From positions 4,930 through 68,929 of the forward strand of contig JADGFA010000020.1 in the NCBI GenBank assembly GCA_016744065.1: a DNA stretch of 64,000 bases, given 5' to 3'. A program made the position numbers and the translations under genes. The notes beneath the pieces were generated by a model. The model was given only the letters and a program-made list of their open reading frames with translations, searched no databases and had not been told where the DNA came from. This document shows, piece after piece, positions 28,888-57,837 of this stretch. How positions within the stretch are numbered: position 1 is the stretch's first letter; each line of letters begins with the position of its first letter. The stretch is from Gammaproteobacteria bacterium. GTDB lineage: Bacteria; Pseudomonadota; Gammaproteobacteria; SZUA-229.

Positions 28888-30753
28888 ATGTGGTTGAGTA
28901 ATACTAAAAGCAGTGCATTTATATTTTTATTTGTTTACTGGTTAGCTTTTAATTTTCTGGTGCTTCATACACCTTTCACCGTTTTTAACTCACCCGATGT
29001 GAGTGCAATTAATTATGTGCAGTATATAAACAGTAATGCACAATCCCCTGACGAAATAAAACAACAAAACTGGCAAACCATATCGCTACCAGATGACTGG
29101 TATAACAATCATAAAAACATAAAACAGGTATGGTACAGAGCTAACTTAACTTTGGATAAAGACAGTGAAGAGCAGGTCTGGGCTGCTTATCTGCCCTCAG
29201 TAACCCATAATGCGGCTGTATATATTAATGGATTCTGGGTAGGACAGGGCGGGCAGTTTACTGATCCGGTTTCCCGCAATCAAAATAAACCTTTGTTATT
29301 TAGCTTTTCATCAAAATTATTACATCAGGGCAACAATCAAATAGATATAAGAGTTAAGGCCGCATTTTTTGAGCAGGGTTTAATGGATGAGTTTTACCTT
29401 GCTCCCGAGTCCCAGTTACATGATGCCTATGTATGGAAAAAAATCATACGTGTTGACCTGGTTCGCTGGATGACGATGGTTATGTATGTACTGTCATTAA
29501 TTGTTTTTGCATTCTGGTTAGCTCGTCCGCAGGACAGTATTTACGGCCTGTTTGCATTAGAACTGTTTATCTGGGCAACACATAATTTAAATTTATTTGT
29601 ATCAGATATTCCTGTATCAGTTAGTATCTGGGAAGCCATGACCATAAGCACACTTGGCTGGACGGTGGTTGCGATGATATTTTTTAATCATCGATTTGTT
29701 GGTGAGAAAAATATTATTGTAGAAAAAGTAATTGTAGTTTTTTCTGTACTCGGTATAGGTATATTTTTTCTTCCTGATATAAGTAGCATTATGCATATTG
29801 GCTATAGCATATGGGATGCATTCGTTATGATTTTTGGTATTTATGCCATTGTTCATCTTATAAGGGTATATCAGCATAAGGGTGATTCTGATGTGTTTTT
29901 GATGTTAGTGGTGGGCATACCTATACTGGTTTTTGGTTTTCATGATATCTTGATGATCAATCACTTCATTGATAGACGTGACGGCTTGACTATTCAGTTT
30001 AGCGTTATACCTTCAGTAATATTATTTAGCTGGTTTCTTGTGCGTCGATTTGTACAGTCAATTAATAAAGCAGAACACCTGGCTGAAACATTAGAGCAAC
30101 GAGTCAATGAAAAGCAGCAGGAATTACAGTTACAGTACGAAAAATTAAAATCGATGGAAAAAGACAGTATTCTTTCAGAAGAACGGGAACGCATTATGCG
30201 TGATATGCACGATGGTATCGGAGGGCAGTTAGTCTCTGTTGTTATGATGTTACAGGAACAGACAGGCGAGGTATTTACCCATGTATGTGAAAAAGTACAA
30301 CACAGTTTAACTGATTTACGTTTTGTAATTGACTCGTTAGATCCCTTATTAAGTGACCTTCCTACGCTGTTAGGGATGATGCGTATACGCCTGGTTGACC
30401 AACTGGAAGCGGCAAACATTGAGCTGGAATGGGCCGTTACTGAACTACCCGAAGTGGCAAACATGAGCCCTCGACGTAGTTTGCATATTATGCGAATAGT
30501 GCAGGAAGCGATAACCAATAGCATAAAACATTCAGGTTCTGAAAAAATGACATTAGCTACAGGCGTAATAAACGATAATATTTATATAGATGTAATAGAT
30601 TATGGAAAAGGATTTAAATCGTCTGAAAAAAATGAGGGCAGGGGCATTAAAAACATGCATTACCGTGCTCAGCAATTAAAAGCAGGCCTGGAATTTAATT
30701 CATTAACTAATGGGGTGTCTATTCGTTTATTGCTTGGTATTAATACTAAATAA
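28888..30753 (+). CDS. Sensor histidine kinase, 7TMR-DISM type with HisKA_3/HATPase_c
   Basis: N-terminal signal + periplasmic domain (7TMR-DISMED2-like). Seven TM helices (residues ~200-400). H-box ERERIMRDMHDGIGGQL typical of HisKA_3 kinases that partner NarL-type regulators. C-terminal HATPase G-boxes (VIDYGKGF). Confidence 0.8.
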   Translation: MWLSNTKSSAFIFLFVYWLAFNFLVLHTPFTVFNSPDVSAINYVQYINSNAQSPDEIKQQNWQTISLPDDWYNNHKNIKQVWYRANLTLDKDSEEQVWAAYLPSVTHNAAVYINGFWVGQGGQFTDPVSRNQNKPLLFSFSSKLLHQGNNQIDIRVKAAFFEQGLMDEFYLAPESQLHDAYVWKKIIRVDLVRWMTMVMYVLSLIVFAFWLARPQDSIYGLFALELFIWATHNLNLFVSDIPVSVSIWEAMTISTLGWTVVAMIFFNHRFVGEKNIIVEKVIVVFSVLGIGIFFLPDISSIMHIGYSIWDAFVMIFGIYAIVHLIRVYQHKGDSDVFLMLVVGIPILVFGFHDILMINHFIDRRDGLTIQFSVIPSVILFSWFLVRRFVQSINKAEHLAETLEQRVNEKQQELQLQYEKLKSMEKDSILSEERERIMRDMHDGIGGQLVSVVMMLQEQTGEVFTHVCEKVQHSLTDLRFVIDSLDPLLSDLPTLLGMMRIRLVDQLEAANIELEWAVTELPEVANMSPRRSLHIMRIVQEAITNSIKHSGSEKMTLATGVINDNIYIDVIDYGKGFKSSEKNEGRGIKNMHYRAQQLKAGLEFNSLTNGVSIRLLLGINTK

Positions 30754-33283: not shown

Positions 33284-33911
33284 ATGCTTTTCCTTTATTG
33301 GTGTTGATATAGAGCTAAACGCTTTGCTAAGGGGCTGTTAACCCAGTAGTTATAGCTTTTATTGTAGTGGTTAGTAGTGTAACCCGAAAATGTAGTAGAA
33401 GTTAAGGGGTGAACGCATTAGTGTCCACTGAAACAAAGGAAGTCCAAAAACAAATATTGAGCTGTCTATTCATCTAGTTTAAAGTCTTGTCAAGATCAAG
33501 CAGATTCAACTGAAAAGCATATATAAACGGGCACTATAAAGGCGTTGGAAGGGCCGTTACGTCATACTGGCAGCTTATTGCTGATTAATTGCCTCCTTCT
33601 AATAAAGAAACAAAAGAATGTCTAATGAAACGCCTTTAAAAGTGGGGTTGTGATGTAAAAGCGGATAGGCAGGGGCACAGTACACTATATTATTCAAATA
33701 CCCATAATTATGAAACGGTGCAGGATGTCATTGTCGAGCATTACGCGGTGTTGTAAAATATCGAGCTCACGGTAGAAGGTATTATTAAAATACACATACT
33801 ACTTAAGTGGGATTAAAGTTCGAAATACATTAAGAGCACTATAAATTTTTTTTAAAATGATAGTATTGTGGCTATCGGTAAAAATTAAAATGCAATTACA
33901 AATGGGAAGCT

Positions 33912-34490
33912 ATGAAAAATAAACACTATATGATGGTTGGCATCATCATTGTCGGTATAACCCTTCTTCTGTCTTTTTTTATCAGTCTGTTAATGAGTGG
34001 GCTGGTTGGTATTGTGTCTGGATTAGTTGTCTATTTTATTCTGAAGCAGGGTAAAGACGATGCGACTCAATCAACGCCATCAAATGAACCTGCACCAAAA
34101 AATGACAGTGAGCAAGGCATTGAGTTATTGCTTGTGGCGAATATCACATTACGAAAAGCAGTCATACCTGAAAAGATTCGTGATGTATATGAAGAGATCA
34201 TTGATCAGTTAATCGCACTTCTCCCTCGCGTTAATGAGTCAAGTCCTGATGGGGAACTGGCCTGGGTTATTAATCGTATGGCAACCGAGTATCTGCCCCA
34301 AAAGTCAATTAAACCGTATCTTGCTTTGAGTGAAGGTGAACGCCAGGATAAAGATGTCATTGAAAAAGTTATTGAATCATTATCGGGTATGAAATCTGAA
34401 CTGGAAGATGTTAAAGATATACTCAGCCAGCGAAAAACAAATGAATTTAATACGAAAGCCAAATTTTTGAAACAACGTTTCAATATCTAA
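33912..34490 (+). CDS. Membrane-anchored protein, possibly XpaC-like (5-bromo-4-chloroindolyl phosphate hydrolysis protein family)
   Basis: Two N-terminal TM helices followed by a ~140 aa charged helical domain. Sits directly upstream of a TelA-like gene, the same xpaC-yaaN(TelA) pairing as in Bacillus. The family call is from memory and not verified. Confidence 0.35.
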   Translation: MKNKHYMMVGIIIVGITLLLSFFISLLMSGLVGIVSGLVVYFILKQGKDDATQSTPSNEPAPKNDSEQGIELLLVANITLRKAVIPEKIRDVYEEIIDQLIALLPRVNESSPDGELAWVINRMATEYLPQKSIKPYLALSEGERQDKDVIEKVIESLSGMKSELEDVKDILSQRKTNEFNTKAKFLKQRFNI

Positions 34491-34503
34491 TACGAGAGAG
34501 ACT

Positions 34504-35652
34504 ATGGATACTCAAAAGAAAGCACCGAAGTGGGCTAATGAAATTGATCTAAGCAATATGAAAGATCGCTCTACGTCATTGATGGTGAAAGTTAAAGAAA
34601 AATCAGGTCCGGCAATGATGCGCCTCATCGATAATATCGGAGGTAACTCACAGAAAAAAATGGCCGCCGCTAATGATCTTATGACTAACAGTGTGGCATC
34701 ATTATTAAAAGGTTTAGACGGTAAATCGCCGACCGGTGAAAAATTGCTTGAGTTGCGCTCAGCTATGGATGATCTAAATCCACATTCATTGAGTAATGCA
34801 TGGTGGTTTTCATGGATGCCAAAAGGTATTAAGCGAAAAGCAATTGGACGATTTGTACACCGCTATGAGCCCATGCAAAAACATGTCAATGGTATTTTAG
34901 CTGGATTACGTGCAGGTAAAGATGATTTGCTTGAAACCAGTATCGAACTTGAGCATCAGTACACGGAAATCGAAGGTGCACAAAAAGAAATTCAAGCTGA
35001 AATTTTTATTGGCGAGCTGTTTCTTGATGATGTAGAAATCCAGGAAAAGTCGGTAGATTCAACGGATATTCAGGAAGTACAAAAACTGTCATCAGTTAAA
35101 AATAAAGCTGCAAGGCGTATCCGTGATTTGCGTACAATGGAACAGGCGGCTGTGCAGTTTTTTATCAGTATTGATCAAACGGTCGCCACCAATGAATTGT
35201 TGAGTGAGCAAATTGACAGTGCGTTAACCGTGGGACCGATGGTGATGACCAATGCCCTTAGAATTCAGGTTGCACTAGCCAAACAGGATACGGTTAAAAA
35301 AGCTGTGCAGGGTTTTCAGGAAGGGCTTGGTGATATGATGGCGCAAAATGCAGCGGCGGTAAATCAGGCGGCCAGTGAAGTGGGGGATATGTATAACAAC
35401 CCTGTCATTGCCTTAGAAAAAATGGAAGAAGGCTTTGATCAATTAATGAAAGCGGTACAAACAGCCAATGAAACCATGGCAAACAGTACACTCAAAGCAC
35501 GAGAAGCAAGTGCTCGTTTAGCAAAAATGACCGCAGAACTGTCACCTGTTGCAGCAGGTTTACGTGAGTCACGTGACGATGAAAAAGAAAGTGAAAAAGA
35601 GAATGAAAAAGTGATTGAAGCTGAGGTAGTTGGCCAGGATAAAGCAGAATGA
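34504..35652 (+). CDS. telA: TelA-like toxic anion resistance protein (382 aa)
   Basis: Size, all-helical composition and conserved central region (...RFVHRYEPMQKHVNGILAGLRAGKDDLLETSIELEHQYTEIEGAQKEIQ...) are consistent with the TelA/KlaB/YaaN family. Confidence 0.5.
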   Translation: MDTQKKAPKWANEIDLSNMKDRSTSLMVKVKEKSGPAMMRLIDNIGGNSQKKMAAANDLMTNSVASLLKGLDGKSPTGEKLLELRSAMDDLNPHSLSNAWWFSWMPKGIKRKAIGRFVHRYEPMQKHVNGILAGLRAGKDDLLETSIELEHQYTEIEGAQKEIQAEIFIGELFLDDVEIQEKSVDSTDIQEVQKLSSVKNKAARRIRDLRTMEQAAVQFFISIDQTVATNELLSEQIDSALTVGPMVMTNALRIQVALAKQDTVKKAVQGFQEGLGDMMAQNAAAVNQAASEVGDMYNNPVIALEKMEEGFDQLMKAVQTANETMANSTLKAREASARLAKMTAELSPVAAGLRESRDDEKESEKENEKVIEAEVVGQDKAE

Positions 35653-36296
35653 AAAATATTACTGAGCGATTAACCGCCATTAGAGGTTTAAACCCAATGG
35701 TTGAAAAAGCGCGAACGGGATTTGATATTACGTCTATTAATCAAGGTGGATATATTGAGCTTAATGATCAAACCTGGAAGGTCATTAATAAATTTAAGTA
35801 TCTTGATGTGAAATGGAGTAGCTTTAAGCGCCGAAAAACAGATTACTGGGTAACCGAATTAGAGCTTTTTTCGCTCAATACAGGTGAATCAATTTATATT
35901 GAATGGGAGAGGGATGATACCTTAGAAATTTGTCAGACAGATGCGGTACTTAAGTTACGTGATATTAAATATAACGGAAAAAGTATAAAGCAAAAGGATC
36001 TTGAGGCTATCGCTGATGAAGAAGAAGGTGAGGTTGTCGTGAATGGAACGTCATATGCATATAGTGAAGATGATACGTGGGCAGGTCTGTTTTTTAAAGA
36101 TACCAGCGATAATGATGGTATCCCCATGAGAGCATATGAGTTTGAATCGAGTAATGGGGACTATTTAACTGTCGAGACATGGCATGAAGATGACCATGAG
36201 GGTGATGATAATCGACCCGATCGAGAAGCATTTCTAAGTCATGATATTACGCAACAATCAATGGCTATTTTACAAATTGAAGGTACTCAAAAATAG
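35649..36296 (+). CDS. DUF4178-like protein (215 aa)
   Basis: 4-nt overlap with telA-like. Soluble, acidic. YIELNDQTWKVINKFKYLDVKWSSF...DYWVTELELFSLNTGESIYIEWERDD resembles DUF4178 (YdjH-type, found in PspA/stress clusters). From memory. Confidence 0.4.
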   Translation: MKNITERLTAIRGLNPMVEKARTGFDITSINQGGYIELNDQTWKVINKFKYLDVKWSSFKRRKTDYWVTELELFSLNTGESIYIEWERDDTLEICQTDAVLKLRDIKYNGKSIKQKDLEAIADEEEGEVVVNGTSYAYSEDDTWAGLFFKDTSDNDGIPMRAYEFESSNGDYLTVETWHEDDHEGDDNRPDREAFLSHDITQQSMAILQIEGTQK

Positions 36297-36328
36297 TCAC
36301 TTGCTATGTTTCGTCAAAGCTTTAAATC

Positions 36329-37990
36329 ATGGAGAATAAATTGAAAAACAATAACAACAGCGTATGGGGTTTTATTGCCCTGATCGTCGCTATGTTTGTA
36401 TTAAATGGTTGCGCAGGACTGCCCGATGGGCAAGTGCATAAAGTTGAAAGTATGACATATACAATCAAGCAACAGGCGGAATTCTTAGATGCCAGAAAAC
36501 AATATTTTGATACACTAAATAAACATGCTGAGTGGGAGTTTATCAAGCCTTATTTAGAGAGTGAGAAATGGTCAGATTATTTAGTGCTTGCACATAAGGA
36601 ATACAATGCAGCAAAAAATACTTATACCAATGAGTTACTGCCCATGCTGGATCGGGATGATCCAGAAGAGACCAGTGCCTTTACGCTTTTAATTATACAA
36701 TTTAATTCGCAAATAGAATCATCAACAAACCATGCGATGCGCATAGAAAAGCGTATTGAATTCTTACTTAAAACACGTGATAACGTACCTGCTATTTATA
36801 CTCACGCAAATGATGAATATTCACAAATCAAAACAATCCAGAAAATGCTTATCCAAAAAGCAGAACAGGCATATACAGATTATCCCAATAAAAAAGATGA
36901 TATTAAAAAACGTATCGAGATCCTGAATGAACTGGTTAATCAGGCCTCTGAGTCAAGATCCCATATTACGCAACAATTTGCTAAAAAACGGGATGCTAAT
37001 TATGCCGTGTTTGGTGATGAGAGCGTCAAGATCAGTCAGCTCTTAATAAAATCAATAGACTATCAAAAACAGACAAATACAAAGCTTGATCAATTATATA
37101 GAAGTTATACCAAAGTCTTAGCAGATCAACGTATTGAATATTTTATTGTCGTGGGCCGAGCCAATTGGTGTGAAAGTGATTATTGTGGTGGGGGCTCAAG
37201 CAGAAGTTATCCGCCCTCACAAGTGGACGATAAAGTGTATGAATATTTCGACACTTTACGCACTGATACTATTGCCACAATGCGTTCGAGTTGGGGTAGC
37301 TTAAATTTTGAATTAGCGATACCGCAGGCTCAGTGGAACGCACTGGGCATTGAAAAACAATGGCGTTGGCCACGTGGTGATAATTATGCTGATTACTGGA
37401 TTGAAAAGTCATACACCCATACGTATCACAAATACATTGAGATTGTGAATGACAAAATGACGGAAGGGGAGTGGGTGAAGGTCGATGAGGTCAGCTTCTG
37501 GAATGATTACGACAATCTGGGAATGGCCATTTTAACAAAACCATATGGCTTTTATGAATCCGACTCTATTACAGACGCACAGCCAGCAGGTATTGCAAAT
37601 ATTGCAACACCTATTATGAGCAATGGCGTACCTACCGGTTCCAATCAATACGGTGAATGGCGACATTCAAATGGCAGTTCATTCTGGTATTACTACGGAA
37701 TGTATCGCATGTTTGGTGGACTTGGCCATTCTCGTCGATACAGCTATGGTGACTGGTCTTCCTATAATAATCGAGCGCGCGGGAAACCTTATTATGGTCG
37801 GAATCAGGGATATGGAACCTATGGGGCTTACACTTATAGCAATTCACGTTATCAGAATAGTGATTATGCAAAACGAAATCCAGGTGAAGTGAGGTCAAGT
37901 AAATCAGATCGCTCATCAAAAACTAATTCATCTATCCGTGGAGCTGGGGCTTCGACACGAAGTCGCGGTGCAGCTGGCGGCGGAAAATAA
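36329..37990 (+). CDS. Lipoprotein with Gly/Tyr/Ser/Arg-rich low-complexity C-terminal tail (553 aa)
   Basis: Lipobox VLNGCAG. Helical N-terminal half. C-terminal ~120 aa of YGxY/RSR/GGG low-complexity sequence. Confidence 0.6.
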   Translation: MENKLKNNNNSVWGFIALIVAMFVLNGCAGLPDGQVHKVESMTYTIKQQAEFLDARKQYFDTLNKHAEWEFIKPYLESEKWSDYLVLAHKEYNAAKNTYTNELLPMLDRDDPEETSAFTLLIIQFNSQIESSTNHAMRIEKRIEFLLKTRDNVPAIYTHANDEYSQIKTIQKMLIQKAEQAYTDYPNKKDDIKKRIEILNELVNQASESRSHITQQFAKKRDANYAVFGDESVKISQLLIKSIDYQKQTNTKLDQLYRSYTKVLADQRIEYFIVVGRANWCESDYCGGGSSRSYPPSQVDDKVYEYFDTLRTDTIATMRSSWGSLNFELAIPQAQWNALGIEKQWRWPRGDNYADYWIEKSYTHTYHKYIEIVNDKMTEGEWVKVDEVSFWNDYDNLGMAILTKPYGFYESDSITDAQPAGIANIATPIMSNGVPTGSNQYGEWRHSNGSSFWYYYGMYRMFGGLGHSRRYSYGDWSSYNNRARGKPYYGRNQGYGTYGAYTYSNSRYQNSDYAKRNPGEVRSSKSDRSSKTNSSIRGAGASTRSRGAAGGGK

Positions 37991-38015
37991 CTTAATTTTA
38001 TAACGAGGAAGTTCA

Positions 38016-38867
38016 ATGAATATCGAACAGTATGTGTACTACATTTTATACGCATTAGTCTATTTAATGTTAGCAACTGTAATGAAATATATTTTAAATA
38101 TACGATCTGCAAGTCATTACTCAGCAGATGATCAAATCGCGGAAGGTAACATGGCTGTTGGCTTACGTCGATCAGGAGCACAGCTTGGCCTGGCCATAGC
38201 AATGATTGGCGTGATGTCAGGTAATAGTCATCCTGACTTAATCAACGACCTTATCGGTACTGTACTCTATGGTTTGTTAGCCATTGGCTTTATGCTAGTT
38301 TCACTTTTTATTACCGATAAAGCGGTTCTACCTAAAGCAAACAATACTGAAGAGTTAAAGCAAGGAAATATTGCCATTGGGTTAGTTGAATTTGGCACAC
38401 TCGTAATGACCGGTATATTAGCCTTTGCAAGTATAAAGGGTGATGATGGAGGTATATTGTCGTCGATAGTTTATTTTATTGCCGGACAGATTACATTAGT
38501 TTTACTGGTGTTGATTTATGAAAAAGTATTAGCACGTAAAATTAATCCTGTTGCATGTGTTCTGGATAAAAATTTATCAGCAGGTATTTATTTATCTGGA
38601 AAAATCATTGCTTATGGATTGATTTTACAAAGTGCAATTATTGGTAATGGCAATGTAAAGCCGCCTGTGGATGCACTTATTGAATACCTAGTGGCCGCAG
38701 CTGCGGGTATGGTCATGTTGTATATTTTTGAAATACTCATTGATAAGTTGCTCATCACATCGACAACGGTAACTGACATTATTATAAATGATCAACGTGT
38801 TGCTGCGGTTCAGTTATCACTGGCGAAAGTGAGTATGGCACTGATACTTGGTATGGCTATTCTCTAA
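38016..38867 (+). CDS. Membrane protein with four DUF350 repeats
   Basis: Four ~60-aa modules, each starting with an N/D-x-A-x-G motif followed by a hydrophobic helix (DQIAEGNMAVGLRRSGAQLGLAIAMIG; ELKQGNIAIGLVEFGTLVMTGILAF; DKNLSAGIYLSGKIIAYGLILQSAI; NDQRVAAVQLSLAKVSMALILGMAIL). This is a YjfL/DUF350-like architecture. Confidence 0.55.
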   Translation: MNIEQYVYYILYALVYLMLATVMKYILNIRSASHYSADDQIAEGNMAVGLRRSGAQLGLAIAMIGVMSGNSHPDLINDLIGTVLYGLLAIGFMLVSLFITDKAVLPKANNTEELKQGNIAIGLVEFGTLVMTGILAFASIKGDDGGILSSIVYFIAGQITLVLLVLIYEKVLARKINPVACVLDKNLSAGIYLSGKIIAYGLILQSAIIGNGNVKPPVDALIEYLVAAAAGMVMLYIFEILIDKLLITSTTVTDIIINDQRVAAVQLSLAKVSMALILGMAIL

Positions 38868-40544
38868 ATGAGTACACCGCGTTACTTACCTGTATTGCTC
38901 GCATTTTGCATGTTCTCAACTGGTGCCAGTGGCCTGGTGAATGAATATGTACTCGCGACAATTACAACTTATATTTTAGGTAATTCGATAGAACAGTTTT
39001 CTATCGTGATTGCCTGCATGATGTTTATGATGGGGGTATCAGGTTTTGTTCAAAGCAAAATGTCAGATGATAATCTGATCTATAAGTTCATTACCGTTGA
39101 AGTGCTTATGGCATTGCTCGGTGGGTTTGCACCCCTGGTGATTTACACTGCTTATGGATACATGGAAGATCATTTCTACCTCGTGCATTACTTCTTTGTC
39201 CTGGCTATCGGTTTTTTAATAGGCTTTGAAATTCCGATTGTGATGCGCATCATCGAGCAGAATAAAATTAACTTAAAGACAAATTTAACACTTGTATATG
39301 CAATGGATTACATTGGCGCTTTTATTGGCGCGCTTATCTGGGTTAACTATTTATTAAAACATTACCCTTTAACAGAAATCAGTTTTATTGTTGCAGGATT
39401 TAACTTTTTCGTAGCTTTACTCACTATTCTATACTTTATGTACACGCAGGTGATTAAACACCGTTTTATACCAATAAGTGCAGCAGCATTAACAATAACA
39501 GCATTAGTGGCTGGGGTATTGAATAATAGAGAGTTAAGTAATTTGTTTGAGCAGCAATTTTATGAAGACCCTATTGTATTTAAAACCACAACGAAATATC
39601 AGCACCTTGTCATTACTGAAAATAAGTCCATTGATGACATTCGATTATACATAAATGGCAATACCCAGTTTTCATCATTAGATGAAAAACGATATCACGA
39701 CCTGTTAGTACACCCGGTTATGACACTATCACCTAATATAAAGCATGTACTGATTTTAGGCGGAGGTGATGGCCTGGCTCTGCGTGAAGTATTAAAATAT
39801 CAAGGGGTTGAGTCTATCACCCTGGTTGACCTCGATCCCGAGATGGTAAAAATTGCTTCCAGGAATGACTATTTAAGAAAACTAAATAACGATGCATTTA
39901 AGGATGCTCGACTTTTTGTACAGGATGCAGAAGGTATTGAAAGCGTAAATGTTAAAGGTCTGTACATGGAGACGAATAATGCAACAAAAGAGGGGATAGC
40001 TGACACTCAATGGGTTGCTTCACTTCATATTTATAATATAGATGCCGATCTTTTCATTAAAAAACAAGCCAATAAACTATGGGATGTGGTGATCATTGAT
40101 TTCCCCGACCCTTCATCAGTAGAGCTCAGCAAGTTATACAGCAAACAATTTTATCGCCATTTAAAACAACACATGTCGCCTTATGCGTATGTTGCGATTC
40201 AATCAACCTCACCCTACCATGCAAAAGAAGCATTTCTAACTATTGGTCATACACTTGAGGCTGCCGGGTTATCATCGCTACCATATAGGCAAAATGTTCC
40301 ATCATTTGGTGACTGGGGTTATTACCTTGCCTGGAAAAACCCCTCGACACCAGACACGGTGAAAGCAACACTAGCTAATTTAACAGAATTTCCTGTGAGC
40401 ACAGATTTTATAACACCGGAATTAATGATGGCGTCGTTTGCATTTGGAAAAGGTGAATTAACGTCTGAATCACATTGCATTAACACCATTATGCAACCTT
40501 GTCTCGTCACACAATATTTAGATTACAGCTGGAAGGTTGAATAA
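38868..40544 (+). CDS. speE: Polyamine aminopropyltransferase (spermidine synthase-like) with N-terminal polytopic membrane domain
   Basis: Stop of the upstream gene abuts the ATG. ~7 N-terminal TM helices. C-terminal SpeE core: GGGDGLALREV (AdoMet-binding GGGDG), VDLDPEMV, IIDFPDPS (D-x-x-D substrate motif). Confidence 0.8.
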   Translation: MSTPRYLPVLLAFCMFSTGASGLVNEYVLATITTYILGNSIEQFSIVIACMMFMMGVSGFVQSKMSDDNLIYKFITVEVLMALLGGFAPLVIYTAYGYMEDHFYLVHYFFVLAIGFLIGFEIPIVMRIIEQNKINLKTNLTLVYAMDYIGAFIGALIWVNYLLKHYPLTEISFIVAGFNFFVALLTILYFMYTQVIKHRFIPISAAALTITALVAGVLNNRELSNLFEQQFYEDPIVFKTTTKYQHLVITENKSIDDIRLYINGNTQFSSLDEKRYHDLLVHPVMTLSPNIKHVLILGGGDGLALREVLKYQGVESITLVDLDPEMVKIASRNDYLRKLNNDAFKDARLFVQDAEGIESVNVKGLYMETNNATKEGIADTQWVASLHIYNIDADLFIKKQANKLWDVVIIDFPDPSSVELSKLYSKQFYRHLKQHMSPYAYVAIQSTSPYHAKEAFLTIGHTLEAAGLSSLPYRQNVPSFGDWGYYLAWKNPSTPDTVKATLANLTEFPVSTDFITPELMMASFAFGKGELTSESHCINTIMQPCLVTQYLDYSWKVE

Positions 40545-41006
40545 ATGAAGACAGAACATGCTAATAATATTTCACATATGGATACAAGTGATCAGCAATG
40601 GCCGGTTCATCAGCAGAAAAAAATCAGCCATGAAGCAACAGATCATTTTATGGAACGAGAAGGCGTGGTGTTTGCAGGAGAGCATATCATAATCGATTTA
40701 TGGGGCGCGCGTTATCTTGATGATTTAGCTTTAATGGAAAAGGTGTTACGTGCGTGTGTAAAGCAAGCGGGCGCTCATTTATTACATATTCATTTACACC
40801 ACTTTACATCCACAGGTGGCATATCTGGGGTCGCGGTATTAGCAGAGTCACATATCAGTGTGCACACCTGGCCTGAAAAAGGTTATGCTGCGTTTGATGT
40901 GTTTATGTGTGGTGATGCAAAACCTGAAAAAACGATTTCAGTTATGAAAGCAGCCTTTTTACCTGAGAAAGTTAATATCAAAAATCTTATGCGCGGCATT
41001 AAATAA
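40545..41006 (+). CDS. speD: S-adenosylmethionine decarboxylase proenzyme, pyruvoyl class 1 (SpeH/SpeD-type)
   Basis: 1-nt gap, suggesting coupling to the upstream gene. AESHISVHTWPE contains the E-S cleavage/pyruvoyl-forming serine motif of small bacterial/archaeal AdoMetDC. Size 153 aa. Confidence 0.8.
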   Translation: MKTEHANNISHMDTSDQQWPVHQQKKISHEATDHFMEREGVVFAGEHIIIDLWGARYLDDLALMEKVLRACVKQAGAHLLHIHLHHFTSTGGISGVAVLAESHISVHTWPEKGYAAFDVFMCGDAKPEKTISVMKAAFLPEKVNIKNLMRGIK

Positions 41007-41233: not shown

Positions 41234-42142
41234 CTACATCCATAAATTATTTTTACTGATAATCAATTTTAAAAATTCATCATGTAAGTAACTCTTTGTA
41301 CGTTGTTTCTTGTATCCTACATCAATTGTTAACGTAACAGCTTTACTTTTTTTCGGCAGCAATTGGATCATGGCGCCTGTTGATAGCTCATCTTTTACTA
41401 TTTCTTCAGGTATAAGTGCCATGCCATGGCCCTGCCTGACTAACTCTTTTAGCACCAGGTCATTCTTTACAGAAACAGTTGGAATCTTCTTTTTAGCTTC
41501 GGCAAATAGCCAGCGTGCATTTTCTTTAACCCATATACTATAAGATGCATAATCTTGTGAATAATCAACAAGGTCCAGGGGTAGTGTGTCTTCTATGGTT
41601 CTTATGCGCTTTCTTTTAAGAAGATACTCGTTTGATGTAACTAATATAAGCTTACGACGCAGTACTGGTTGAGTATTGATTAATTTACGGTTATTCACAT
41701 AAACAAAAAAACCAAAATCTATTTCATTATTAAGTAAGGCTTTTTCAAGTTCAACATCAATACCGAGTAATACCTCAAATTTAACCCTGGGGAATTGTTG
41801 TTTAAAGGCAGTAACAATATAGGGCAGGTATCCAGTACTTTGCTCCATCCACAGGCCAAGTCTTATTGTTCCTGTTGCTGATGTTTTATCCGATTTCATG
41901 TGATAAACCGAGTTTTCCATTTGCAGGAAGGCTGACTTAAACTCTTTGTAGAGCGTCTCTCCCTGTCGAGTAAGTACTATTTTTGGGCCATTACGGTCAA
42001 AAAGTATCAGTTCCAGCTCTTCTTCTAACGACTTAAGCTGTAGTGATATTGCTTGTTGCGTTCGAAAGAGTTTAATTGCTGCTTTTGTAACACTACCGGA
42101 ATCAACGACCTCTATAAATGTTTTTGCTTTGTTGAAATCCAT
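41234..42142 (-). CDS. LysR-family transcriptional regulator
   Basis: N-terminal LysR HTH (MDFNKAKTFIEVVDSGSVTKAAIKLFRTQQAISLQLKSLEEEL). ~300 aa with a C-terminal substrate-binding domain. Confidence 0.85.
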   Translation of the reverse strand: MDFNKAKTFIEVVDSGSVTKAAIKLFRTQQAISLQLKSLEEELELILFDRNGPKIVLTRQGETLYKEFKSAFLQMENSVYHMKSDKTSATGTIRLGLWMEQSTGYLPYIVTAFKQQFPRVKFEVLLGIDVELEKALLNNEIDFGFFVYVNNRKLINTQPVLRRKLILVTSNEYLLKRKRIRTIEDTLPLDLVDYSQDYASYSIWVKENARWLFAEAKKKIPTVSVKNDLVLKELVRQGHGMALIPEEIVKDELSTGAMIQLLPKKSKAVTLTIDVGYKKQRTKSYLHDEFLKLIISKNNLWM

Positions 42143-52857: not shown

Positions 52858-54558
52858 TTAACGAATAAAACTTAGAAATAAATAACTAGCAAGAATCACA
52901 GCAACCCACATAACCATACTGCCTGCTGGATATGTGCGTGAAAGTAAACCACAGATTCCCTCATGTCTTTTAGAAAGAAATGACAGACACTGATTTAACC
53001 TTATGAGAAATGCCTGACGTAAAGCACTGTCTACCTGCCATATAACGGAAAACATTTGTTGTAATGTGTTGGGCAATACACGGCGATAAATCCAGTCAAA
53101 ATCTAGATTTGTAGAACGTAATTCGGGGGGATACATTCCTTTGAGATTAAGCCAGACAAAAGCCAGCGCAGAGAAGAACAGCAACTGAGTCTGTGCTAGT
53201 ACGTGGGTTGCATCATAAGGGTTGTAACTCGTGTTGTAAGGTAACAAAGAGTACAGGGCTGATGGATAGACCCCAATCGCAATACAAAGAACGGCAGCTA
53301 TCAGCATTGCTAATAACATGTTGTTGGGTGGATCACTTGCGCGGATGCCTGAGTCGTGAGCGAAGAAAGCAAAGTAGGGGATTTTAATACCCGCATGATG
53401 AAAAACCCCTGCTGAGGCAAATAACAGCATTAGCCATATCCAGTCATAACCATTTTCCAGGGCAGCGGACATCACCATTGATTTGCTCACGAAACCACTG
53501 AATAAAGGGAAAGCCGATATAGATGCAGCCCCTACAATGCACAGCACTGTGGTCTTAGGCATGGTTTTATATAAGCCACCAAGGTCAGAGCCATTGATGC
53601 GCCCTGTCATATGCAGCACGGCTCCCATTGACATAAATAACAAACCTTTAAAAATGACATCATTAAAAGCATGTGAAATTGCGCCATTAAGCGCGAGAGC
53701 GGTTCCAATACCGATACCGACAACCATAAACCCAACCTGATTGATAAGGCTATAGGCCAGCACCCGGCGTAGATCGTTTTCTATTACTGCAAAAAATATC
53801 GGGAAGCAGGTCATAGCTGCGCCAATATAAACCAGCAACTCTGTGCCAGGGTACCCACGAGCTAATGCATAAACGGCTACTTTGGTAGTAAACGCGCTGA
53901 GAAAAACAGTGCCTGTAACAGTGGCTTCAGGGTATGCATCAGTGAGCCAGTTGTGGGCCATAGGAAATGCACACTTAATGCCAAAGGCGATAAAGATCAA
54001 CCACCCTGAAACACCCTCTAGACCTATGTGACCGAACTCTAAAGTGTTGTTTTCGGAGGCATAAAATAGTGCGCCTGCAAGAAGAATGACACCGGATAAA
54101 ACTTGAATAATGAGGTAGCGCATACCAGCAACATAAGAGCTTTTAGTTCTGCGCGCCCAGATAAGAAATACTGAGGTAAATGCCAGTAATTCCCAGAAGA
54201 CAAATAACGTTAATAAATCACCCGCAAAAACAGCCCCCAGGCCACTGCCTGCATACAACATAGCAGCCATTTGTTGCATTGTGTCGCGAACGTGCAGGGA
54301 GTAGATAATGGCAATAAATGCGGCGAGGTGAAAAACGTAACCGAACATGAGGCTCAGCTTATCAACACGGTAAGGCGTTAGTTGATAATCTAGAAAAGTG
54401 AAATGTAAATGGATTCCTTCAGCTACTCCCCAGAGGTGGAGGGCACTCAGTACAGGTATTGCTAGCATAATCACATTGCGCAAAATACCTCGGGTGAACA
54501 GGACAATTAGTGCGCCTATAAAGAAAGGCAGAAAAGGGGGGATCTCAGGCATCCACAT
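52858..54558 (-). CDS. Proton-conducting antiporter-like membrane subunit (NuoL/MrpA N-terminal-like), third large subunit of the Mrp-type cluster
   Basis: 566 aa, ~16 TM. Proton_antipo_M-like core (…FVFWELLAFTSVFLI…, …GFMVVGIGIGT…). Last gene of the minus-strand operon. Confidence 0.7.
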   Translation of the reverse strand: MWMPEIPPFLPFFIGALIVLFTRGILRNVIMLAIPVLSALHLWGVAEGIHLHFTFLDYQLTPYRVDKLSLMFGYVFHLAAFIAIIYSLHVRDTMQQMAAMLYAGSGLGAVFAGDLLTLFVFWELLAFTSVFLIWARRTKSSYVAGMRYLIIQVLSGVILLAGALFYASENNTLEFGHIGLEGVSGWLIFIAFGIKCAFPMAHNWLTDAYPEATVTGTVFLSAFTTKVAVYALARGYPGTELLVYIGAAMTCFPIFFAVIENDLRRVLAYSLINQVGFMVVGIGIGTALALNGAISHAFNDVIFKGLLFMSMGAVLHMTGRINGSDLGGLYKTMPKTTVLCIVGAASISAFPLFSGFVSKSMVMSAALENGYDWIWLMLLFASAGVFHHAGIKIPYFAFFAHDSGIRASDPPNNMLLAMLIAAVLCIAIGVYPSALYSLLPYNTSYNPYDATHVLAQTQLLFFSALAFVWLNLKGMYPPELRSTNLDFDWIYRRVLPNTLQQMFSVIWQVDSALRQAFLIRLNQCLSFLSKRHEGICGLLSRTYPAGSMVMWVAVILASYLFLSFIR

Positions 54559-54877
54559 CGGGTCTACCTATTTCGTCATTTTGTTTTTTATCAACACTAC
54601 TGAGTTTTTCACCAATATCTGCTTTGCCTTCATTGGCATAATAATCTTCCGAGCGCATAAGAAAAGTACGCATCCATGTGGCGATTAACACCAGCACAAC
54701 GCAGCCAACAAAACCATAAAGCGGATAGAATCCCCAAAGGTTTTCCCAGTTGTGCATGACGTGACGATGGATAACAAAGTCCAATACAAAAAGAAGTACA
54801 CAACTCCCATAGAGAAAATACAAAAGTCGTTTTATATTTTTAGGATTATCAAAAAGATATTTTTTTTTATTTTCCAT
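54545..54877 (-). CDS. Small membrane protein (110 aa) embedded in the Mrp-type operon
   Basis: Two TM helices. Overlaps neighbours on both sides, suggesting translational coupling. No family recognised. Confidence 0.45.
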   Translation of the reverse strand: MENKKKYLFDNPKNIKRLLYFLYGSCVLLFVLDFVIHRHVMHNWENLWGFYPLYGFVGCVVLVLIATWMRTFLMRSEDYYANEGKADIGEKLSSVDKKQNDEIGRPDVDA

Positions 54878-54880
54878 GAG

Positions 54881-56362
54881 TTACTCCGGGGTTGCCAAAA
54901 TGGCCTTAGCCAATTCATATAACGGTTGTGGATATACAAAAAGAACCACGCAACCCACAGTGGTAATACTCAATGCAATTAATGATGCTAGTGGAGCTTC
55001 TTTTATCTTGGTGCCTGTATTCGCAAATGGAATATTATTTTTAGAGAAAAAGGCATGAAAAGGTATGGGTAATAGATAAGCAATATTCAGCAAAGAGCTG
55101 ATCATAAGTACCACCATAAGAATCCATTGCTCAGTTTCCAGAGTACCCATTAGCAGAAACCACTTGCTCCAGATTCCCCCGGCGGGGGGGACACCAATGA
55201 TGCTGAGGCTGGCAATAAAAAATGCCGCCATGGTAATTGGCATTTGCAGGCCAAGGCCACGCATTTCACTTATTTTTGATTTATGTGCTGTGACCAGAAT
55301 GGCACCTGCACAGAAAAACAGGGTGATCTTGCCAAAAGCATGTGTGGCAATATGCATTGAGCTACCAATAACGCCCGCCGATGTCGCCAACAATGCGCCA
55401 ATAGTGATATAGCCCAGTTGGCTTATGGTTGAGTATGCCAGTCTGGCTTTTAAATTGTCCTGGCGCATAGCCACCAGTGAGGCCAGTAATACAGATGCAC
55501 CTGCTAGATAGAGTAAGAACTGCGTGGTTGGCAGTATCGATAACAAATCAATGCCAAAGATAAATAGACATACTTTCAATATGGTGAATACGCCAGCCTT
55601 TACCACGGCTACAGCATGCAGCAGAGCACTCACGGGTGTTGGTGCAACCATTGCCGCCGGTAACCAGCGATGAAAAGGCATAATTGCGGCTTTGCCAATA
55701 CCAAAAATAAACAGCACCAATATTACACCTGCAACGGTGGTATTAACGTCAGAATCAAATATGCCACCGGGTTTAAAGTCTAATGTGCCGGCCACAAACC
55801 AGGTACTGATAATGGCTAAAAGGAAAAAGACAATTGAAGTACCCAGCAATACTCCAAGATAAACTCGTCCGCCTTTTTTTGCCTTTTCAGTACCCGCATG
55901 GGTAACTAATGGGTAGGTGGACAGGGTTAGTGTTTCGTAGAAAATAAATAGGGTGAATAGGTTTTCGGCAAATGCAATCCCCATCACGCTGCCAATGGCG
56001 ATAGCAAAACAGGCATAGAATTGAGTTTGATTCTGTTCCTCATGGTGGCGCATATAACCGATGGAGTAGACAGTGGTTATTAGCCAGAGAAAGCTGGCAA
56101 TTAAAGCAAACAGCATTCCCAGCGGTTCAATGTTAAAGCTTATCTGTAAATTGGGTAAAAGCGGCCACCAGGTCACACTGATACTTTCACCCTGTTTGAT
56201 TCCCTGATAAAGATTAACTGAAAGGTAGAGCAGTATTAAACTGCTAATAATGGTCACAGCCTCACGCAAGTTGGGTTTGTTGCCTGTTGCCACAATAGCC
56301 AGCGTCGTTAATATGGGCAGGATAATACTCAGTTGTAGCATGGATTCCAGAGAAAGAGTCAT
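54881..56362 (-). CDS. mrpD: Mrp antiporter subunit D-like (NuoM/N-like) membrane protein
   Basis: 493 aa, ~14 TM, Proton_antipo_M core. 4-nt overlap with the upstream mrpD-like gene. Confidence 0.75.
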   Translation of the reverse strand: MTLSLESMLQLSIILPILTTLAIVATGNKPNLREAVTIISSLILLYLSVNLYQGIKQGESISVTWWPLLPNLQISFNIEPLGMLFALIASFLWLITTVYSIGYMRHHEEQNQTQFYACFAIAIGSVMGIAFAENLFTLFIFYETLTLSTYPLVTHAGTEKAKKGGRVYLGVLLGTSIVFFLLAIISTWFVAGTLDFKPGGIFDSDVNTTVAGVILVLFIFGIGKAAIMPFHRWLPAAMVAPTPVSALLHAVAVVKAGVFTILKVCLFIFGIDLLSILPTTQFLLYLAGASVLLASLVAMRQDNLKARLAYSTISQLGYITIGALLATSAGVIGSSMHIATHAFGKITLFFCAGAILVTAHKSKISEMRGLGLQMPITMAAFFIASLSIIGVPPAGGIWSKWFLLMGTLETEQWILMVVLMISSLLNIAYLLPIPFHAFFSKNNIPFANTGTKIKEAPLASLIALSITTVGCVVLFVYPQPLYELAKAILATPE

Positions 56363-57837
56363 GGATTCACCCCGAACAAACTCTGCGATGCGGCCTGTGC
56401 AACCTCAATGCTAAGGCGCGTATCTATGCCGAAATAAATGTTGGCCATTACCAGTATCCAGATGGGAACCAGCAATGAAAATGGTGCTTCCTTAATGTTT
56501 TCATTGCTGGTTAATGGAGGCCTAAAATAAGCCATTTCAACGATTCGCCACACGTAAACAACGGCTAAAAGTGAGCCTAGTAGGATAAGTAATGCAACAG
56601 GCCACCAGCCACTTTCAATCACCGCCAGAATCAGATACCACTTGCTAACAAAGCCAACAGTGAGTGGCACCCCTATTAAACTTAAGCCGCCTATTACAAT
56701 GGCTGCCATAGTGATGGGCATTTGACGACCCAGACCCTGAAACTGACTCAGTTGAACACTACCTATACGGTACATCACTGCACCTAGTGCTAAAAACAGG
56801 GCGCTTTTCATTAAAGCGTGATTAAACAGGTGCAATAAGGTCGCCATTAAACCGGTTGTTGTACTAACGCTGAATCCAACAATCATGTAACCGATCTGAG
56901 CGATACTTGAGTAGGCGAATAGATGTTTGACATTTTTTTGATAGATCGCCGCAATTGAGGCTGCAAATATTCCTGATAGACCCAGCACCAAAAACAGAAT
57001 ATGTAGGGGCAGGGCTGTAAAAGAAAAGGAAAGCCCGAATACTGAAAAGGTAAAGCGAATAAGTAAATAAATAGCAACTTTTGTTGCCGTAGCCGCAAAG
57101 AATGCCGTTACTATTGAAGGCGCATAAGCATAGGCATTAGGCAGCCATAGATGCAATGGAAACAGTGCCAGTTTCAGGCAGATGCCCACAATAACAAAGG
57201 CAAAAGCAGTAAAAACAGTTCGAGTATGCGCCACCTCTGGCAGACGTATAGAAAGGTCATGCATATTCAGGGTGCCGGTCATCTGGTACATCAAACCTAT
57301 ACCTATCAGGATAAATGTGGCACCAATGGTTCCCATAATTAAATACTGATAGGCTGCCCAGAGCGCGCGTCTGTCTTTGCCCAATGCGATTAAAGCGTAA
57401 GCTGACAGGGAAGAAATTTCCAGAAATACAAAGACATTAAAAGCATCACCTGTCGCAACTATGCCAAGCATTCCGGCCAGAGATAACAGGTATAAAATAT
57501 AAAAATAGCTATGTTTTTCTGCGGGAATTTCCTTTTGTATACTGGTATCAGCGGCAAGTAGTACAACAGTACTAACCGATGAAATAATCAGTAACAGGAA
57601 TGCATTAAGATGATCGATACGATATTCAATACCCCAGGGTGCATCCCATCCCCCCAGTTCGTAAATAATAATGCCCGAAGTCATTACCTGCTGCAGTAAA
57701 AGGGCGCTGATCAAAAAAGCTAAACCACTTACCATTAAAGCGAACAGCCATACCAGGCGTGATCGTGTTAGAAACAGGCACAAAGGTGCAGCCATAAGCG
57801 GCACAATAACTTGTAAAACTGGCAAATGCGTTAACAA
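56359..57837 (-). CDS. mrpD: Mrp antiporter subunit D-like (NuoM/N-like) membrane protein
   Basis: 492 aa, ~14 TM. …LIMGTIGATFILIGIGL…, …AYSSIAQIGYMIVG…. Confidence 0.75.
   Translation of the reverse strand: MLTHLPVLQVIVPLMAAPLCLFLTRSRLVWLFALMVSGLAFLISALLLQQVMTSGIIIYELGGWDAPWGIEYRIDHLNAFLLLIISSVSTVVLLAADTSIQKEIPAEKHSYFYILYLLSLAGMLGIVATGDAFNVFVFLEISSLSAYALIALGKDRRALWAAYQYLIMGTIGATFILIGIGLMYQMTGTLNMHDLSIRLPEVAHTRTVFTAFAFVIVGICLKLALFPLHLWLPNAYAYAPSIVTAFFAATATKVAIYLLIRFTFSVFGLSFSFTALPLHILFLVLGLSGIFAASIAAIYQKNVKHLFAYSSIAQIGYMIVGFSVSTTTGLMATLLHLFNHALMKSALFLALGAVMYRIGSVQLSQFQGLGRQMPITMAAIVIGGLSLIGVPLTVGFVSKWYLILAVIESGWWPVALLILLGSLLAVVYVWRIVEMAYFRPPLTSNENIKEAPFSLLVPIWILVMANIYFGIDTRLSIEVAQAASQSLFGVNP

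Follow-up and report, generated by a model that had tools for sequence, protein, structure and literature searches.

The described system closest to the locus presented here is an operon organized around PspA. In it, a CesT/Tir (DUF2170)-PspA dyad is encoded together with a spermidine synthase fused to a seven-transmembrane domain (7TM-SpdSyn), an eight-transmembrane (8-TM) YjfL/DUF350 protein, a lipoprotein and a beta-rich cytoplasmic DUF4178 protein, the SO_3765/SO_3766 region of Shewanella oneidensis being one example (Ravi et al., 2024, mSystems, PMC11237479). For linkage to S-adenosylmethionine (AdoMet) decarboxylase, the same article cites Li et al., 2019 (PMC11237479). Here we analyzed a stretch of 64,000 nucleotides (nt) from a gammaproteobacterium of the lineage SZUA-229 (GCA_016744065.1, contig JADGFA010000020.1, positions 4,930 to 68,929), which we call the window, and focused on seven co-directional genes at 33912-41006. 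They encode the same membrane core with a different head, which comprises a small membrane-anchored protein that we call g1, a TelA-family protein and a DUF4178 protein. We consider it fairly probable that the seven genes form one operon, a TelA-headed version of the envelope system described beside PspA, consisting of a membrane core and an exchangeable cassette at the cytoplasmic face.

The window shares with the PspA-linked operon DUF4178, the 7TM fusion, the 8-TM DUF350 protein and a lipoprotein that ends in a low-complexity tail, together with the AdoMet decarboxylase (AdoMet_dc) that is often found there. It differs in containing neither PspA_IM30 nor DUF2170, g1 and TelA holding that slot, and is a variant of the PspA-linked operon, not a strict member. 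The four-gene core (DUF4178, lipoprotein, DUF350 and 7TM-SpdSyn), often with the decarboxylase SpeD, is already published. What is new is the g1-TelA-DUF4178 cassette, together with the predominance of this head in our sample and the in-place exchange between it and the PspA cassette. Neither PMC11237479 nor the supplement consulted with it mentions TelA, and a full-text literature search found no paper linking TelA to these core genes.

Two other known systems overlap with the locus in part. The Escherichia coli yjfIJKLMC-type cluster (DUF2170-PspA/YjfJ-DUF2491-DUF350/YjfL-DUF1190-glutathionylspermidine-synthetase-like; PMC11237479) likewise combines a stress-scaffold dyad, DUF350, a lipoprotein and a polyamine-related enzyme, and some of its versions include a K+ channel, as do many TelA-headed loci. 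It differs in that its enzyme is an ATP-grasp ligase, its DUF350 has 4 transmembrane (TM) segments rather than 8, and TelA and DUF4178 are absent. The firmicute xpaC-telA (yaaN) pair, linked to the ability to tolerate nisin, daptomycin and other membrane-active agents (PMC12791056, PMC6811118), has a small N-terminally TM-anchored protein with a helical cytoplasmic domain encoded directly 5' of telA, as in the window. Unlike this pair, g1 has a C-terminal domain without a match to PF10112, and no polyamine genes are reported beside the firmicute genes. One Bacillus telA in the plasmid collection has an O-methyltransferase and DUF3974 as neighbours, not XpaC.

The 2019 work of Li et al. is said to have described AdoMet decarboxylase clustered with a membrane-fused spermidine synthase-like enzyme and DUF350. 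Species with such fusions reportedly had no spermidine, and the fusion reportedly failed to complement an E. coli speE mutant; the acceptor was said to be probably not putrescine, and TelA, g1, DUF4178 and lipoprotein partners were reportedly not described. Shared with the window, by this account, are the class 1b AdoMet decarboxylase, the membrane-fused aminopropyltransferase and DUF350. The mycobacterial genes Rv2597-Rv2601 may form a related cluster; no functional literature on them was found.

The seven genes, from a listing of open reading frames (ORFs), and a candidate promoter lie in the window as follows (aa, amino acids):

33830-33858, + strand: candidate promoter TTAAGA-17-TAAAAT, 54 nt 5' of g1, weak
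33912-34490, + strand: g1, small membrane-anchored helical protein, 192 aa
34504-35652, + strand: TelA-family protein, all-helical and soluble, 382 aa (PF05816)
35649-36296, + strand: DUF4178 protein, 215 aa (PF13785)
36329-37990, + strand: lipoprotein, 553 aa, lipobox Cys28, no family match
38016-38867, + strand: DUF350 (YjfL-family) integral membrane protein of two tandem 4-TM units, 283 aa (PF03994)
38868-40544, + strand: 7TM domain fused to an aminopropyltransferase of spermidine-synthase fold, hereafter the SpeE fusion, 558 aa (NF002956, PF01564)
40545-41006, + strand: class 1b pyruvoyl AdoMet decarboxylase (SpeD) proenzyme, 153 aa (TIGR03330, PF02675)

Exchange of the Head Cassette

Three PspA-headed loci have the gene order DUF2170-PspA-DUF4178-lipoprotein-DUF350-SpeE-SpeD. 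Two of them (L040, L042) were reached through distant homologues of the window lipoprotein and the third (L061) belongs to the metagenome set described below. Their SpeE proteins are 53-63% identical to that of the window, as against 49-51% in the TelA-headed loci L039 and L044. The corresponding values are 49-55% against 30-33% for DUF350, and 34-37% (over the full length) against 30-31% for the lipoprotein; SpeD is 54-57% identical in L040 and L042, and L039 and L044 have no SpeD in the locus. By these identities, the PspA-headed cores are as close to the window as other TelA-headed cores, or closer. A neighbor-joining tree of 115 SpeE proteins places PspA-headed loci of this type within the window-type TelA clade. 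The head has been exchanged in place, upon an otherwise orthologous core.

The DUF4178 protein follows the head rather than the core. At equal core identity it is 43-54% identical to the window protein in TelA-headed loci and undetectable by BLASTP in PspA-headed ones. Because DUF4178 diverges together with the head in this way, the exchanged unit is a cassette of three genes, g1-TelA-DUF4178 on one side and DUF2170-PspA-DUF4178' on the other.

A second PspA-linked layout, SpeE-DUF350-(K+ channel)-PspA-SpeD, was found in L108, L110, and L117, where no lipoprotein and no DUF4178 were detected. The SpeE proteins of these loci form a separate, more distant clade in the same tree.

Conservation and Gene Order

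Related loci were collected in several ways. A genome scan was carried out with the SpeE fusion and clade-specific peptide patterns and therefore yielded close relatives only; more distant variants came from tblastn against plasmids, from look-ups of lipoprotein homologues and from a metagenome scan. TelA homologues are 64-100% identical across marine Gammaproteobacteria, and it was in this group (Kangiellaceae, Woeseiaceae, Cycloclasticus, Oleiphilus, Oleispira, Bermanella, Spongiibacteraceae, and others) that the genome scan found its 28 loci. The order of genes 1-6 is kept in all 23 loci whose contigs reach far enough, and the other five, which end at contig edges, agree as far as they go. 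The tails are more variable: SpeD directly follows SpeE in six of the 28, comes after a K+ channel gene in eight, and lies upstream of g1 in one; nine have no SpeD within the flank, and in four the contig ends before the tail. In the TelA neighbourhoods of Neptuniibacter and Pleionea the order is the same, with a K+ channel (Ion_trans_2 + TrkA_N) after SpeE instead of SpeD (L001 15999-17057 and L003 16133-17170). The window has no K+ channel gene.

The metagenome scan used a diverse SpeE alignment and gave 79 loci at 38-72% identity, drawn from the best 80 among at least 559 hits, which were ordered by how similar they are to the window protein. Their ORFs were classed by locally built hidden Markov models (HMMs) and the labels were checked against Pfam, which matched 21 of 23 divergent TelA-labelled proteins to PF05816 and confirmed all tested PspA, DUF2170, and DUF2617 labels. 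Among the 46 informative loci, 39 are TelA-headed, five contain PspA and two contain neither, so that g1-TelA-DUF4178 is the commonest head in this sample. Wherever the DNA extends far enough, g1 is directly 5' of TelA (38/38) and DUF4178 directly 3' of it (38/38). The original prediction, made from the letters of the window, had held that the genes were conserved together; with 23 of 23 genome loci and 39 of 46 informative metagenome loci this is borne out, and the arrangement is far beyond chance.

Four gene orders were distinguished among TelA-headed loci: that of the window; the window order with DUF2617 added; a divergently transcribed version (L063-65); and a permutation first seen on an Alteromonas plasmid. 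DUF2617 stands between DUF4178 and the lipoprotein in some versions (among L038, L069, L077, L080, L087, L098, and L063-65). The Alteromonas mediterranea plasmid pAMCP48-600, found by tblastn, encodes all seven families in the order SpeE-SpeD-g1-TelA-DUF4178-lipoprotein-DUF350, with identities to the window of 29% for TelA, 42% for SpeE, 26% for DUF350, 21% for the lipoprotein, and 46% for SpeD. This permuted order also occurs in L103 and L114.

The SpeE fusion was also seen in reduced contexts. An Ensifer replicon (L035 6747-13929) has the reduced arrangement SpeD-DUF350-220-aa protein-SpeE, followed by a PotD/PotA-like ATP-binding cassette (ABC) transporter, and on a Ralstonia megaplasmid (L033 8938-12151) the fusion adjoins a flavin adenine dinucleotide (FAD)-dependent oxidoreductase only.

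The Head Genes

TelA matches PF05816 with 140.1 bits against a cutoff of 30, over profile positions 16-326 of 332. DUF4178 reaches 34.3 bits against a cutoff of 25 for PF13785, and both assignments made in the original prediction are upheld by these HMM scores. Neither TelA nor DUF4178 has sequence relatives in the PDB. By hydropathy TelA, DUF4178, and SpeD have zero hydrophobic TM spans, and DUF4178, which has neither a signal peptide nor a TM segment, is probably cytoplasmic.

The g1 protein has no Pfam or NCBIfam family, in the case of Pfam even at E<=10. Its AlphaFold2 (AF2) model (predicted local distance difference test, pLDDT, 82.8) contains two helices, at residues 3-23 and 26-46, and a bundle spanning 65-190 in which pLDDT is >90. 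The predicted architecture begins with a TM hairpin at the N-terminus, continues through a disordered linker and closes with a conserved helical bundle of ~125 aa. A fold search against the PDB with g1 retrieved generic helical bundles only. A profile search assembled a g1 family of 267 clusters at 50% identity, all of 130-225 aa. The start of the gene is ambiguous (33912 or 33930), as the public gene call for an identical protein gives 186 aa and begins at the second Met cluster; relatives retain an N-terminal extension of similar length.

The label XpaC-like, given earlier to g1, did not hold. The window protein has no PF10112 match at E<=10, and sub-threshold matches were found in three of 21 locus-derived and five of 61 distant g1 relatives; in the two relatives that were inspected these cover the TM hairpin only and score 15-17 bits, where the cutoff is 29.8. 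Homology to XpaC was rejected on these grounds, and the likeness between the two proteins is one of architecture and position.

The Lipoprotein and the DUF350 Protein

The lipoprotein carries the lipobox L-N-G-C28, and its C-terminal tail of 98 residues is enriched in Gly, Ser, Tyr, and Arg (G17/S16/Y13/R13), in agreement with its earlier description as a Gly/Tyr-rich lipoprotein. It belongs to no Pfam or NCBIfam family (Pfam even at E<=10), and a PDB fold search gave no significant match. The AF2 model (pLDDT 88.7) shows a long helical bundle at 33-255, a beta-rich domain at 260-455 and a low-complexity tail. Judged by lipobox, tail, and identity, this architecture agrees with the 'LipoSIG+Ctha_1186+Low-comp' proteins of the PMC11237479 supplement.

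The DUF350 protein matches PF03994 with 137 bits over two stretches of the 133-residue model, which makes it an 8-TM protein of the YjfL type. Its annotation as "4x DUF350" is therefore right as to family and wrong as to count, the protein holding two copies of the current Pfam model. It has 283 aa in nearly every relative.

The Two Enzymes

The aminopropyltransferase and decarboxylase families were likewise confirmed as predicted, as was the expectation of ~7 N-terminal TM helices in the SpeE-like protein, in which hydropathy finds seven hydrophobic spans within residues 1-220. The SpeE fusion matches PF01564 (Spermine_synth) with 106 bits and the equivalog NF002956 with 577 against a cutoff of 472; it falls below the cutoff of the NCBIfam model for a fused major facilitator superfamily (MFS)/spermidine synthase ('fused MFS/spermidine synthase', 33 vs 40 bits). 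Its catalytic domain aligns to aminopropyltransferases of Thermus and other organisms (1UIR/3ANX) and contains the motifs GGGDG at 298, DLD at 321, DA at 392, and DFPDP at 411. We aligned 17 fusions reaching down to ~34% identity and including those of Ralstonia, Burkholderia, Ensifer, and Gemmatirosa replicons. Invariant in the catalytic domain are Y244, Q245, Q267, D272, E273, Y276, H277, GGGDG298-302, D323, D392-A393, and D411-x-P-D414-P. Among them are the motifs for catalysis and for binding of decarboxylated AdoMet: YQ, Q..S.DE..YH, GGGDG, the acidic residue after beta-2, D-A/G, and D..DP. The membrane domain also contains invariant residues (S40, E121, R127, D147, Y148, and N179), and E26, D67, and E78 are nearly so. 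Invariant polar residues within TM helices suggest that the 7TM domain binds or conducts something and is not a mere anchor.

Neptuniibacter sp. SY11_33 encodes, 9 kb upstream of its module, a canonical soluble SpeE of 289 aa (Spermine_synt_N + Spermine_synth; L001 165-1034), so that the 7TM fusion is an additional enzyme in this strain. An MFS transporter gene is also found ~9 kb upstream of that module.

SpeD matches PF02675 (AdoMet_dc) with 120 bits and the equivalog TIGR03330 with 129.8 against a cutoff of 75.65, and carries an N-terminal extension of 40 aa. Its E101-S102, H107, and C122 align to E62-S63, H68, and C83 of the Thermotoga maritima enzyme, the processing column holding Ala in the S63A mutant structure 1TMI, and the motifs HTWPE and FxCG are retained. 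Neofunctionalisation can turn SpeD homologues into decarboxylases of ornithine or arginine (PMC10407285). Here AdoMet is the favoured substrate, in view of the equivalog score and of the aminopropyltransferase next door. Since the catalytic residues are conserved in both proteins, the SpeE fusion and SpeD look active.

Junctions and Genomic Surroundings

The seven genes are tightly packed, with distances of 13, -4, 32, 25, 0, and 0 nt from g1 to SpeD, and their number, direction and coordinates are exactly those of the original prediction. So are the 4-nt overlap of telA with the DUF4178 gene (ATGA) and the abutment of the DUF350 stop codon on the speE start (TAAATG). The 1-nt gap proposed between speE and speD is not there, as these genes abut directly (TAAATG, 0 nt). 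An Rfam scan detected no riboswitch or leader RNA in the 730-nt gap 5' of g1 or around the locus, and a tRNA scan in and around the locus found none.

About 3 kb upstream, at 28888-30753, the window encodes a 621-aa multi-TM protein with, by translation, a histidine-kinase-like C-terminus and no Pfam match at 1e-5. A LysR-family regulator lies on the opposite strand at 41234-42142, 230 nt downstream of the module. Neither gene is kept beside the module in the Neptuniibacter and Pleionea neighbourhoods. Further away, a giant ORF of 4617 aa followed by fn3, PKD, and Big_9 proteins (6129-27251) resembles a large surface-adhesin cluster, and at 52858-57837 on the minus strand there are at least two, probably three, genes for Mrp/Nuo-type Proton_antipo_M subunits (two Pfam-confirmed), in a stretch with raised G+C and strong AT skew.

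Proposed Function and Alternative Explanations

We favour the following reading of how the TelA-headed locus works. A class 1b AdoMet decarboxylase, encoded in the locus or elsewhere, would supply decarboxylated AdoMet (dcAdoMet), and the 7TM-fused aminopropyltransferase would move its aminopropyl group onto an amine acceptor. This acceptor would be bound at the enzyme's own membrane domain or delivered through it, and would thus probably be something other than free cytoplasmic putrescine. As fixed partners of the enzyme, the 8-TM DUF350 protein and the periplasmic lipoprotein would handle substrate or product across the envelope. The g1-TelA-DUF4178 cassette would link this core to the condition of the inner membrane, as DUF2170 (CesT-like)-PspA-DUF4178' may do in the sister operons: TelA would be a PspA-like membrane-stress scaffold or sensor, brought to the membrane by g1, and DUF4178 an adaptor in contact with both the TelA head and the core. 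A function in envelope homeostasis, presumably protective under stress, would fit the K+ channel gene found in 16 of the 39 TelA-headed metagenome loci (in some instead of SpeD, in others before it) and the literature on TelA/XpaC and antibiotic tolerance (PMC12791056, PMC6811118).

Several observations weigh against this proposal. SpeD is present in 16 and absent from 23 of the 39 TelA-headed metagenome loci, and the genome loci with no SpeD in their flanks add to this; either the decarboxylase is encoded elsewhere in these organisms or their systems need none. A g1-like protein is present in L038 (6987-8662), a locus with DUF2617 and without TelA, which means that g1 is not strictly TelA-dependent. 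The ranking of metagenome hits by similarity to the window protein biases the ratio of TelA to PspA heads, and the neighbor-joining tree carries no bootstrap support values. As regards the presumed co-transcription, promoter-like sites in the region number 24 against a shuffle expectation of 29.9, which makes the site at 33830-33858 a positional candidate only, and terminator-like sites are not commoner than in shuffled sequence. Finally, the charge distribution of the SpeE fusion predicts a topology with the N-terminus inside and the catalytic domain outside the cytoplasm, which conflicts with a cytoplasmic dcAdoMet donor.

This topology leads to a different explanation, in which the catalytic domain faces the periplasm and dcAdoMet leaves the cytoplasm by way of the 7TM domain or DUF350. 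The acceptor would then be an envelope molecule (a lipid head group, lipopolysaccharide, or the Gly/Tyr-rich tail of the lipoprotein), aminopropylated at the outer face, while TelA or PspA guards the inner face. Across 115 family members, the mean number of Lys plus Arg is 1.8 in the N-terminus, 2.4 in loop 2-3, 2.9 in loop 4-5, and 1.7 in loop 6-7, against 0.2, 0.1, and 1.0 in loops 1-2, 3-4, and 5-6, and the 20 residues that follow TM7 have a net acidic charge. With seven spans, the positive-inside rule puts the catalytic domain outside, and an N-in orientation also agrees with the label 'SIG' that the supplement of PMC11237479 gives to the first helix of SpeE. The invariant acidic and polar residues of the TM helices speak for it as well, as do the dedicated periplasmic lipoprotein as an obligatory partner and the strict co-occurrence of C537 and C545 (both in 57 sequences, neither in 58, one alone in 0, of 115). 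Yet the count of TM spans comes from hydropathy alone, in many family members the catalytic domain holds an odd number of Cys, and the covariation of C537 and C545 may merely follow one clade. Moreover, we know of no AdoMet-type donor that works in the periplasm. We regard periplasmic catalysis as quite unlikely. In its full form it would amount to a trans-envelope aminopropylation machine of an undescribed kind, with dcAdoMet passing outward by an acidic 7TM pathway or DUF350 to an envelope acceptor beside the lipoprotein, and with the TelA and PspA cassettes stabilising or sensing the inner leaflet; this too strikes us as improbable.

Another idea, close to that of the original prediction, is that the window holds a surface-polyamine locus like Pseudomonas aeruginosa PA4773-PA4775, SpeD and SpeE making spermidine or a related free polyamine that is exported to coat the outer membrane with the aid of the other genes. 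In both loci a class 1b AdoMet decarboxylase adjoins a non-housekeeping aminopropyltransferase, with intact catalytic residues in the window; the transporter-like TM domain, DUF350, and the periplasmic lipoprotein could serve export; and speD2-speE2-PA4775 contributes to cationic-peptide resistance in P. aeruginosa, a link to envelope protection (PMC3572637, PMC7179292). The resemblance stops there, since only SpeD and SpeE are common to the two loci. PA4774 (SpeE2) is a soluble thermospermine synthase of 349 aa (PMC11107197), as against 558 aa with a 7TM domain in the window, and PA4775, which reportedly lacks homologues in the databases (PMC7179292), is thus not known to be a DUF350. The Pseudomonas locus is controlled by PmrAB and has no TelA, DUF4178, DUF350, or lipoprotein (PMC11107197, PMC7179292, PMC3572637), and no pmrAB-like pair flanks the window locus. 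SpeD is itself missing from most related loci. The reported lack of spermidine in species with such fusions, and the reported failure of the fusion to complement E. coli speE, also speak against this idea. The juxtaposition of SpeD and aminopropyltransferase noted in the prediction therefore stands, and the analogy is otherwise superficial. The module is not an extension of a Pseudomonas-type locus; its core is that of the PspA operon (PMC11237479), and SpeD is a variable accessory (16 of 39 TelA-headed metagenome loci). A surface-polyamine function is in our view unlikely.

Public annotations of the TelA gene as 'toxic anion resistance protein' or 'YaaN involved in tellurite resistance' would allow that a tellurite or toxic-anion determinant lies by chance beside a housekeeping spermidine synthase. 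We give this almost no credence. The genes stay linked across four gene orders and at TelA identities as low as 19-29%, which excludes a chance juxtaposition; telA overlaps the DUF4178 gene by 4 nt, no other ter or kla genes are nearby, and the enzyme differs from the housekeeping type, for which Neptuniibacter has a separate canonical SpeE. A role in anti-phage defence was also considered and rejected, PADLOC giving only a generic methyltransferase-fold match of SpeE to mad2.

Implications

The label of tellurite resistance protein has stayed with TelA for decades, with no mechanism to go with it. In otherwise orthologous operons g1-TelA-DUF4178 holds the slot of CesT-PspA-DUF4178', and the two cassettes have been swapped. 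This context hints at a PspA-like role for TelA on the cytoplasmic side of the membrane, with DUF4178 as a likely adaptor between head and core. The comparison also fixes the invariant parts of the enlarged system, which are the 7TM-enzyme, DUF350, and the lipoprotein, and the enzyme probably aminopropylates something other than putrescine. Both types occur in cultivable hosts: Neptuniibacter sp. SY11_33, Pleionea mediterranea DSM 25350, and Alteromonas mediterranea CP48 for the TelA-headed form, and S. oneidensis for the PspA-headed form. Were the trans-envelope reading true, these loci would represent a new envelope modification and would provide the long-sought cellular role of TelA.

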